This document shows positions 61,201-64,000 of a stretch of 64,000 nt of DNA, one piece after another (the stretch's first letter is position 1; each line of letters starts with the position of its first letter). Position numbers: made by a program. The DNA is from Escherichia coli O127:H6 str. E2348/69 (GTDB taxonomy: Bacteria; Pseudomonadota; Gammaproteobacteria; Enterobacterales; Enterobacteriaceae), in assembly GCF_000026545.1 (NCBI RefSeq), contig NC_011601.1. One strand, 5' to 3'.

Positions 61201-64000
61201 CGTAATCGCGATATGTGGGTTGATCCGCGTCAGGGCGTCACGGGCGGATTCCACCTTTGGTTGCCCGACCGTGGCATCACTGTGCAGCGTCTGGCGTTGC
61301 AGATTGGAGAGCGAAACCGTGTCGAAGTCGAGCAGAGTCAGGTTGCCGACACCGGCGCTTGCCAGATACTGCGAAGCTGCGCAGCCGAGTCCACCAAGGC
61401 CGACGACCAGCACGCGGGAATCTTTCAATGCTTCCTGACCGTCAAAATCAAAACCGCGCAGAATGATTTGCCGGTTGTAGCGCAGCATCTCCTGATCGCT
61501 GAGTTCCGCCATTACAGGCCTCCGAACAACGCGTTAAACGGTTCTACTTCCACCCATTCGCCCACTTCCACATTGCCGCGATCGCGTTCCAGCACGATAA
61601 AGCAGTTGCCGAGGCTAAAGGAGCTAAATATATGTGAACCCTGATGTCCGGTGGTGGTGACTTCCAGTTCGCCATCGGTGTTGCGTTGCAGCACGCCGCG
61701 CTGGAAATCAAGGCGTCCTGGCGTTTTTTTCAGGCGGGACGCTGTGCGTACACGCTGGCGCGCGGGCAGGCCACTGGCGGTATTGCCGCTTAGTTTTGCC
61801 AGCAAAGGCTGTACCAGTTGATAGAAGGTCAGCGTCGCTGAAACCGGGTTGCCCGGCAGGCCGCAGAACCAACTATTAGCAAGTTTACCGAATGCGAACG
61901 GTTTACCCGGTTTAATCGCCAGTTTCCAGAAGGCAATCTCCCCCAGCTCTTCAAGAATCGTTTTGGTGTAATCCGCTTCACCCACTGAAACACCGCCGGA
62001 ACTGATCACCACATCCGCCTGGCTGTCGGCTTCAATAAATGCGGCGCGCAGGGCATGGGGATCGTCACGGATAATCCCTAAGTTGATTACCTCGCATCCC
62101 AACTGTTCTAACATCAGGTGTACGGCGAGACGGTTGGTATCGTAGATTTGGCCGTCGCCCAACGGCTGACCGGGCAACTGGAGTTCATCACCGGTAGAAA
62201 AAAGCGCTACACGCACTTTACGAATCACCGGAACTTCGGCAATCCCTAGCGAAGCAATCACTGGCAGTTCAGCGGTAGTCAGGCGAGTCCCCGCCGGGAA
62301 AACAACCGCACCTGCAGAGATATCTTCACCGCGACGGCGAATATTTTGCCCGCTACGCGCTTCAGCAGTAAAACGCACGCCATTGTCCGTTTGTTCAGTC
62401 TGCTCCTGCATCACCACCGCTTCGCAGCCTTCCGGCACCGGCGCACCGGTCATAATACGAATGCAGGTACCCGCAGGCCATTCACCATGGTACGGCTGAC
62501 CGGCAAAGGATTTACCGGCAACGGGCAGCGGTTGCCCGGAGGCAATATCGGCTAAACGCACCGCGTAGCCGTCCATAGCGGAGTTATCAAACCCCGGGAC
62601 ATCCAGTGGCGAAACGACATCACTCGCCAGAATACGACCAAAACACTGAACCAGTGGCAGCGTTTCCTGGGCGGTCAGTGGGGTAACGCGACAAAGCATC
62701 TCATTAAGCGCGGTGTCGAGCGACATCAATCCGGTGGTAAATTCCATGAAAACACTCCTGCGGAGGCAAAATCGAATTTGCCTATTATGTCAGAAAAACG
62801 CCACAGACTGTATGCCACCTCGGGCGTAGCGCTGGCTCCTGCCTTTACATGCCATATCCATCTTTCTATATTCAAAAATTGAATGAGTCATTCATAAAAA
62901 TTCTGATATTTATAGCAAAAGTGGCGAGCCACCCTTAATGGACGAATACTATGGGCAAAGCAGTCATTGCAATTCATGGTGGCGCAGGTGCAATTAGCCG
63001 CGCGCAGATGAGTCTGCAACAGGAATTACGCTACATCGAGGCGCTGTCTGCCATTGTTGAAACCGGGCAGAAAATGCTGGTAGCGGGCGAAAGTGCGCTG
63101 GATGTGGTGACGGAAGCGGTGCGTCTGCTGGAAGAGTGTCCACTGTTTAACGCCGGAATTGGCGCTGTCTTTACGCGTGATGAAACCCATGAACTGGACG
63201 CCTGTGTGATGGATGGTAACACCCTGAAAGCCGGTGCGGTGGCGGGCGTTAGTCATCTGCGTAATCCGGTTCTTGCCGCCCGACTGGTGATGGAGCAAAG
63301 CCCACATGTGATGATGATTGGCGAAGGGGCAGAAAATTTTGCGTTTGCTCATGGCATGGAGCGCGTCTCGCCGGAGATTTTCTCCACACCTTTGCGTTAT
63401 GAACAACTAATGGCAGCGCGCGAGGAAGGGGCAACAGTCCTCGACCATAGCGGTGCGCCACTGGATGAAAAACAGAAAATGGGCACCGTAGGGGCCGTGG
63501 CGTTGGATTTAGACGGCAATCTGGCGGCAGCCACGTCCACGGGCGGAATGACCAATAAATTACCCGGACGAGTTGGCGATAGTCCCTTAGTGGGGGCCGG
63601 ATGCTATGCCAATAACGCCAGTGTGGCGGTTTCCTGTACCGGCACGGGCGAAGTCTTCATCCGCGCGCTGGCGGCATATGATATCGCCGCGTTAATGGAT
63701 TACGGCGGATTAAGTCTCGCGGAAGCCTGCGAGCGGGTAGTAATGGAAAAACTCCCTGCGCTTGGCGGTAGCGGTGGCTTAATCGCTATCGACCATGAAG
63801 GGAATGTCGCGCTACCGTTTAACACCGAAGGAATGTATCGCGCCTGGGGCTACGCAGGCGATACGCCAACCACCGGTATCTACCGTGAAAAAGGGGACAC
63901 CGTTGCCACACAGTGATGAACTTGATGCCGGTGATGTGCTGGCGGTTGAAAATCTGAATATTGCCTTTATGCAGGAGCAGCAGAAAATAGCTGCGGTCCG

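Follow-up and report, generated by a model that had tools for sequence, protein, structure and literature searches.

The gsiA gene of Escherichia coli E2348/69 starts at a UUG codon within the end of iaaA: evidence for the start site and a probable origin of the overlap

Where translation of gsiA begins, and whether its closeness to the end of iaaA has a regulatory consequence, are questions raised by the junction between the first two genes of the iaaA-gsiABCD operon. The window analyzed here, that is, the whole stretch of 64,000 nucleotides from E. coli O127:H6 str. E2348/69, ends inside gsiA; read in the gsiA frame, its end comprises the first 32 gsiA codons (63903-64000), with the gene continuing past the edge. 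The 3' portion of the window that carries the junction reads ...GTGAAAAAGGGGACACCGTTGCCACACAGTGATGAACTTGATGCC... On the + strand, the gsiA frame is opened by TTG (UUG) at 63903-63905, but the same frame runs without a stop back to 63783 and contains five further candidate start codons. Given several in-frame candidates, the choice of TTG required evidence beyond the sequence alone. Taken as a whole, this evidence makes it very probable that translation of gsiA, which encodes the fused double-ATPase subunit of the glutathione ABC importer GsiABCD, begins with the UUG at 63903, that a Shine-Dalgarno (SD) element positions the ribosome there, and that the overlap with iaaA arose by loss of the iaaA stop codon. 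The features concerned, with the evidence for them, are as follows.

62951 to 63916, + strand: iaaA (isoaspartyl/beta-aspartyl peptidase), 321 aa, first gene of iaaA-gsiABCD (ORF, NCBIfam, RefSeq)
63795, + strand: in-frame ATG, a candidate start in the open gsiA frame
63804, + strand: in-frame ATG, a candidate start in the open gsiA frame
63885 to 63887, + strand: in-frame GTG, an upstream candidate start, rejected
63890 to 63892, + strand: iaaA codon 314, AAA (Lys), aligned with the TAA stop of iaaA in other genera
63891 to 63896, + strand: SD-like AAGGGG (sequence, duplex energy, conservation in most orthologues that share the start position)
63903 to 63905, + strand: gsiA start codon TTG (RefSeq CDS start, TetRP signal, cross-genus start-codon alignment)
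63903 to 63916, + strand: iaaA/gsiA overlap of 14 nt including the stop codon, with gsiA in the +1 frame relative to iaaA
63914 to 63916, + strand: iaaA stop TGA, inside gsiA codons 4-5 (aGT GAt)
63936 to 63938, + strand: in-frame GTG (Val12, codon 12), the 2006 K-12 annotated start, rejected
63969, + strand: in-frame ATG (codon 23), a downstream candidate start, rejected

An earlier note on this DNA, made from the sequence, had claimed that gsiA begins at TTG 63903, that the N-terminus reads (M)PHSDELDAG, that the start falls within the last codons of iaaA, 14 nt before its stop, and that TTG is a rare start codon. These factual claims stand; translational coupling, which the note also read from the arrangement, is plausible from the geometry. 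RefSeq, the NCBIfam alignment at residue 1, tetracycline-inhibited ribosome profiling (TetRP), and the start codons of orthologues agree on the position. Reading from TTG yields (M)PHSDELDAG..., followed at residue 11 by Asp here versus Asn in K-12. The iaaA ORF extends from ATG 62951 to TGA 63914-63916, so that 63903-63916 is common to both ORFs and the first base of TTG lies 11 nt ahead of the first base of TGA; the full IaaA protein matches NCBIfam NF007589 (beta-aspartyl-peptidase equivalog), residues 1-321 on profile 1-321, with 711.9 bits. As to rarity, UUG starts about 3% of E. coli genes, with roughly 10-100% of the activity of AUG (Hecht et al.), and gsiA is the only one of the 61 annotated genes of its neighborhood to start with TTG. 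Mechanistically, the UUG would be decoded by initiator tRNA as fMet, and the AAGGGG at 63891-63896, separated from TTG by a 6-nt spacer, would position the ribosome; the predicted duplex of this SD with the 3' end of 16S rRNA is -7.8 kcal/mol.

The TTG start is not itself new: it is the current standard gsiA annotation (2014 onward) and is backed by published start-site profiling. The window segment 63600-64000 is found in 5,425 of 5,426 complete E. coli genomes and is 100% identical in strain FDAARGOS_536 (locus L001), for which RefSeq gives iaaA as 6352-7317 and gsiA as 7304-9175, with locus position 7304 corresponding to window position 63903. The RefSeq annotation of K-12 MG1655 has the same arrangement, TTG start included, and the gene order iaaA-gsiA-gsiB-gsiC-gsiD is annotated in the loci L001 and L002, gsiBCD lying beyond the window end. 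In strains with the complete gene, GsiA has 623 aa. The L001 protein, from the locus identical to the window over 63600-64000 (the window itself covers codons 1-32), matches NCBIfam NF007613 (GsiA equivalog) with residues 1-623 on profile 1-623 and 1374.9 bits, versus a cutoff of 1077. Farther along the protein, in the region beyond the window, the Walker A sequence GESGSGKS is present twice, as in two fused ABC nucleotide-binding domains, and the alignment of Rv1281c to GsiA covers two domains. Paralogue models and solved homologues (DppD, OppD, YejF, and Rv1281c) align only from GsiA residues 9-13 on; thus, the first 11 residues constitute a GsiA-specific N-terminal peptide. The PDB holds no GsiA structure and hence no construct N-termini for comparison, and a literature search on the gsiA start codon found nothing relevant.

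The most direct evidence comes from TetRP, by which initiating ribosomes were mapped in K-12 (Nakahigashi et al. 2016, PMC4909307), a strain that is not the window strain but is one base apart from it over positions -40 to +45. In Table S2 of that work, row 8 (yliA = gsiA) reports a new start at TTG, 33 nt 5' of the one annotated in 2006, and the depths are 46.3, 140.5, and 70.6 at TTG versus 0, 0, and 2.98 at the 2006 GTG site; within its search range of 60 nt, the table gives no second start candidate for gsiA (PMC4909307). According to Table S3, the 2014 record U00096.3 (start 867520) moved gsiA by -33 from the 2006 record U00096.2 and has zero offset from TetRP, and gsiA is among the 63 re-annotated starts that the main text describes as confirmed by TetRP (PMC4909307). 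The ribosome profiling that the earlier note had proposed as a check was therefore already published for K-12, and its signal lies at TTG.

Other start-site data sets are less informative. In INRI-seq, an in vitro method that uses a fragment from -30 to +150, the gsiA peaks are 0/0/0/0/0, despite a transcript that is abundant in the pool (151 CPM; PMC9825163); the Ribo-RET value for gsiA, as relayed in INRI-seq Table S2, is also 0 (PMC9825163). INRI-seq confirms approximately 70% of annotated starts and Ribo-RET approximately 18%, and consequently these negatives weigh little. A GsiA N-terminal peptide was not found among those TRAINSPOTTER tables in which the IaaA N-terminus appears.

Comparison across genera addresses the start site independently of any one strain. 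A scan of one genome per species yielded 80 loci with GsiA relatives, Salmonella and Klebsiella not being among them; all were anchored on the conserved Val12 (VLAVxNL) and compared at the codon 11 positions upstream. From Enterobacterales to Burkholderiales, most of the 80 have iaaA directly ahead of gsiA. At the aligned start position, TTG is found in E. coli (three genomes), E. albertii, two Citrobacter, Superficieibacter, and Pseudocitrobacter; GTG in Enterobacter, Lelliottia, Phytobacter, Pluralibacter gergoviae, Siccibacter, and several MAGs; and ATG in Leclercia, Cedecea, Enterobacter Ag1 and R1, Rahnella, Serratia, Mixta, and Pantoea 1.19. In most of them, an SD (AAGGGGG, AAGGAG, or CAGGAG) lies 6-8 nt 5' of the start. 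The start position is thus conserved, while ATG, GTG, and TTG interchange at it; this interchange across genera is a new observation. Within E. coli, the TTG is nearly invariant: a 45-mer probe designed so that TTG falls inside every 28-nt seed matched 5,420 of 5,426 genomes, 5,157 of them exactly, and versions of this 45-mer in which ATG or GTG replaced TTG matched none of the 5,426.

The codons that follow the start also bear on the question. Over codons 2-8 (PHSDELD), the mean pairwise difference among 18 orthologues is 0.16, 0.09, and 0.49 at codon positions 1, 2, and 3, and synonymous versus non-synonymous codon-pair differences number 387:205 in the gsiA frame, compared with 81:578 and 31:612 in the other frames; one Ser codon in this stretch has switched from AGT to TCT. 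In most of the species compared here, iaaA does not overlap the stretch. This pattern of substitution has the signature expected of translated sequence that starts immediately after the proposed start.

These results can be set against the other possible starts. One of them is the GTG at 63936, codon 12, which is present and in frame in the window and which, as in the 2006 annotation of U00096.2, would give a 612-aa protein with no overlap. Homology to the ABC ATPases DppD, OppD, YejF, and Rv1281c begins near it, at residues 9-13, tblastn matches to distant orthologues begin at residue 12, and a GGTGAT complementary to the 3' end of 16S rRNA lies directly 5' of it. However, that element abuts the GTG with zero spacer, TetRP depth at the site is 0/0/2.98 versus 46-140 at TTG, and in five taxa (L004, L007, L008, L021, and L028) Val12 is encoded by GTA, GTT, or GTC instead of the GTG found in E. 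coli. Furthermore, the coding-type third-position substitution of codons 2-8 lies upstream of this GTG, and the curated GsiA profile takes in the 11 N-terminal residues that would be lost. A start at GTG 63936 is already largely refuted and must be considered highly improbable. The GTG could also be a second start, for a minor 612-aa proteoform made alongside the main 623-aa form from TTG. E. coli is known to use internal in-frame starts (Meydan et al.), and one TetRP sample has a trace signal (2.98) at GTG 63936, but the ratio of TTG to GTG signal is about 137:1, the GTG is not conserved, and the INRI-seq tables, to the extent consulted, contain no alternative gsiA initiation site; such dual initiation is very unlikely. 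The earlier note had named, as the finding that would overturn its claim, a downstream ATG or GTG that yields a shorter but conserved N-terminus; none was found, since GTG 63936 is variable and without a TetRP signal of consequence. The ATG at 63969 is ruled out by TetRP and conservation. Finally, a start farther upstream inside iaaA, at GTG 63885, ATG 63795, or ATG 63804, would lengthen the overlap and add an N-terminal extension, and the open frame back to 63783 in E. coli would accommodate it. Yet in Enterobacter, Lelliottia, Cedecea, and Siccibacter a stop 3-6 codons 5' of the start closes the frame, and longer forms of GsiA are consequently excluded in those genera. In addition, GTG 63885 is replaced by GCG in E. 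albertii and in L004 (a divergent genome named E. coli), the two ATG codons are not conserved even inside Escherichia, none of the three is preceded by an SD, and TetRP reported no second candidate within its 60-nt range. There is next to no chance that gsiA starts upstream of the TTG.

With the UUG at 63903 as the start, the overlap itself can be considered. In Enterobacter, Leclercia, Lelliottia, Superficieibacter, Pseudocitrobacter, Phytobacter, and Siccibacter, the alignment has iaaA ending ...GIYRE-TAA, and this TAA is the first part of a TAAGG(G/A)G SD located 12-14 nt ahead of the gsiA start. Escherichia and Citrobacter have AAA instead of TAA at the position of 63890-63892, and IaaA therefore reads on for eight residues, KGDTVATQ, to the TGA at 63914-63916. 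Judging from this alignment, the 14-nt overlap is probably a derived state, a point not made before, and would have arisen by a single T-to-A loss of the stop codon: in the Escherichia/Citrobacter lineage, an ancestral iaaA TAA embedded in the TAAGGGGG Shine-Dalgarno would have changed to AAA. The clade with the stop loss is delimited in part, as Salmonella and Klebsiella are not in the 80 loci. Elsewhere the geometry differs again, with -1 junctions (TAATG/TGATG) in Cedecea and Enterobacter Ag1 and R1, a -4 junction (ATGA) in Rahnella, and a -8 junction in Pantoea 1.19. For the Enterobacteriaceae, Erwinia, Pantoea, Serratia, Rahnella, and Mixta loci, the position of the iaaA stop relative to the gsiA start lies between -22 and +11 nt; the exception is Rouxiella, at -103. 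An overlap of 14 nt is not unusual. Several -8, -4, and -1 gene junctions occur near the gsiA locus.

Does the arrangement couple translation of gsiA to that of iaaA? Current reviews describe coupling as operating by reinitiation/scanning or by RNA unfolding (PMC12548453, PMC6728339). The genes are co-directional, overlap by 14 nt, and form a tight junction across Enterobacterales, and on this sequence evidence translational coupling from iaaA to gsiA is plausible. Ribosomes that end iaaA 11 nt downstream of the UUG may add to gsiA initiation by reinitiation and/or local unfolding, and a weak UUG would hold stand-alone initiation of gsiA low. A canonical NTGA/TGATG (-4/-1) stop-start motif serving gsiA is absent from the E. 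coli junction, where the spacing is -14. The TGATG at 63914-63918, at the iaaA stop, does contain an ATG (63916), which was rejected as a start: it belongs to another frame, and the ORF it opens is only 13 codons long. Simple scans of the + strand around the junction detected neither an internal promoter nor a terminator separating gsiA from iaaA; a 'terminator' on the minus strand (63915-63898) was discarded as merely the complement of the A-run and SD. On coupling, the kasugamycin translatome is uninformative, its gsiA ratio of 0.73 (p 0.27) not being significant. Under sulfur limitation, the operon with gsiA is reported to be under the control of CysB.

The unfolding variant of coupling appears not to be supported here, as far as structure prediction can tell. 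A hairpin is predicted at 63864-63944 (-30.6 kcal/mol, z -2.07), the most stable of 59 neighboring translation initiation windows. Its loop is predicted to leave the SD and start mostly unpaired, with a mean unpaired probability of 0.59 (rank 52 of 59 neighboring genes). In the junction alignment, no consensus RNA structure is conserved across genera or beyond Escherichia, and there is no structural covariation. A hairpin that sequesters the ribosome binding site was accordingly not taken as evidence of coupling, given that the prediction leaves the SD and start unpaired and the structure is not conserved.

This leaves the question of how much gsiA owes to ribosomes arriving from iaaA. Initiation at TTG might be driven independently by the SD, the overlap being a neutral consequence of iaaA having lost its stop, with no role in coupling. 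The SD is conserved at a proper spacing, and a good SD would permit such initiation; structure prediction leaves the SD and start accessible, the junction lacks covarying structure, and the overlap itself can be attributed to one T-to-A change, other genera doing without it. Against this are the very short stop-start distance in nearly all Enterobacterales loci, which in some genera takes the classical -1/-4 form, and the failure of the isolated fragment to initiate in vitro despite its abundant transcript. Moreover, termination at 63914-63916 inevitably places a ribosome over the SD and start, and iaaA termination and gsiA initiation therefore cannot be fully independent. Fully SD-driven initiation is a real possibility, if one that falls short of being probable. 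At the other extreme, GsiA synthesis would depend largely on ribosomes finishing iaaA, by backward reinitiation over approximately 11-14 nt, since the loss of the stop in this lineage; the change shifted iaaA termination in Escherichia/Citrobacter, previously 13 nt ahead of the UUG, to 11 nt past it. The isolated initiation site that is silent in INRI-seq, yet has a TetRP signal in vivo, is a hint in favor of coupling. Nevertheless, dependence of this degree is rather unlikely. If it were true, the output of the importer ATPase would be tied to translation of IaaA.

The gsiA start annotated from 2014 onward is right and the older GTG start wrong, which bears on the cloning of full-length GsiA and on proteomics databases; beyond annotation hygiene, the importance is small. 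Nonetheless, the iaaA-gsiA junction provides a tidy and easily testable case of operon geometry drifting among non-overlapping, -1, -4, and -14 states.

Several known junctions can be compared with this one. The nearest is that of K-12 itself, where gsiA (b0829, formerly yliA; U00096.3/RefSeq) likewise has the TTG start, the AAGGGG SD, and the 14-nt overlap (867520-867533), the earlier record U00096.2 having placed the start 33 nt downstream of TTG. The K-12 sequence is identical to the window from -21 to +29 and differs by one base over -40 to +45; the two GsiA proteins differ in Asn11 versus Asp11 and a few later substitutions (98.4% identity). The junctions of Enterobacter, Lelliottia, and Leclercia resemble the window in gene order and start position, with an SD of AAGGGGG and then PHS(D/E)ELD, but they have a GTG or ATG start, an iaaA TAA within the SD 13-14 nt ahead of that start and hence no overlap, and an IaaA without the KGDTVATQ tail. 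In the same window, bioF-bioC (9248-9261) is likewise a 14-nt co-directional overlap inside an operon, although bioC starts with ATG, unlike gsiA. Classical -1/-4 coupled pairs (TGATG, ATGA; PMC12548453, PMC6728339) are also co-directional operon neighbors with a stop and a start within one ribosome footprint, and their motifs occur at this very junction in Cedecea and Enterobacter Ag1 (TAATG/TGATG) and in Rahnella (ATGA). In contrast, the E. coli iaaA-gsiA pair combines a 14-nt overlap with a UUG start, and its coupling is putative.

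Codon 314 of iaaA (63890-63892), the gene directly upstream of the glutathione importer ATPase gene gsiA, is AAA in Escherichia and Citrobacter, whereas seven other enterobacterial genera have a TAA stop at this position. The change from TAA to AAA gives IaaA an eight-residue tail, KGDTVATQ, and is responsible for the overlap of iaaA with gsiA (14 nt, 63903-63916). This geometry is not unique even inside the window, since a second 14-nt overlap joins bioF to bioC (9248-9261, from the bioC ATG at 9248 to the end of the bioF stop at 9261).

The RNA surrounding the gsiA start is predicted to form a long hairpin (63864-63944; -30.6 kcal/mol, z -2.07), the most stable among 59 neighbouring start regions. 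The gsiA Shine-Dalgarno sequence and start fall inside its loop of ~40 nt and would be left unpaired. A search for a consensus structure found none conserved beyond Escherichia.

Upstream of iaaA, the sole sigma-70-like consensus match is TTTACA-17-TATATT at 62844-62872 (10 of 12 positions). This candidate promoter would generate an iaaA 5' UTR of ~70 nt, as compared with the 32-nt UTR in a RegulonDB-derived table. In K-12, iaaA (b0828) has been listed as a kasugamycin-resistant transcript, with a KEV > 2 (PMC5230787 Table S3). The annotated K-12 iaaA translation start was not detected by INRI-seq, an in vitro mapping of initiation; the IaaA N-terminal peptide is present in the TRAINSPOTTER N-terminal proteomics data.

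Elsewhere in the window, the ompX-opgE interval carries an insertion of ~700 nt, which is missing in the comparison E. coli strain FDAARGOS_536 and contains the following gene:

48235-48744, IS200-like Y1 transposase (PF01797, E 1.7e-37)

Conversely, rlmF carries an IS1 in FDAARGOS_536 but not in the window. At its left edge, the window holds a group of effector-like genes:

34-537, 761-1417 and 2711-3364 (minus strand), type III effector-like genes, adjoining ybhB
within this group, an OspG/NleH-like kinase gene (Pfam PF22303)
within this group, a Cif gene (PF16374)
within this group, a 217-aa ORF (weak AvrPphF-ORF-2 match)

The 217-aa ORF presumably resembles EspJ. Taken together, the genes suggest that a prophage or effector island ends here, close to the bio/lambda-att region of an EPEC/EHEC-like strain.
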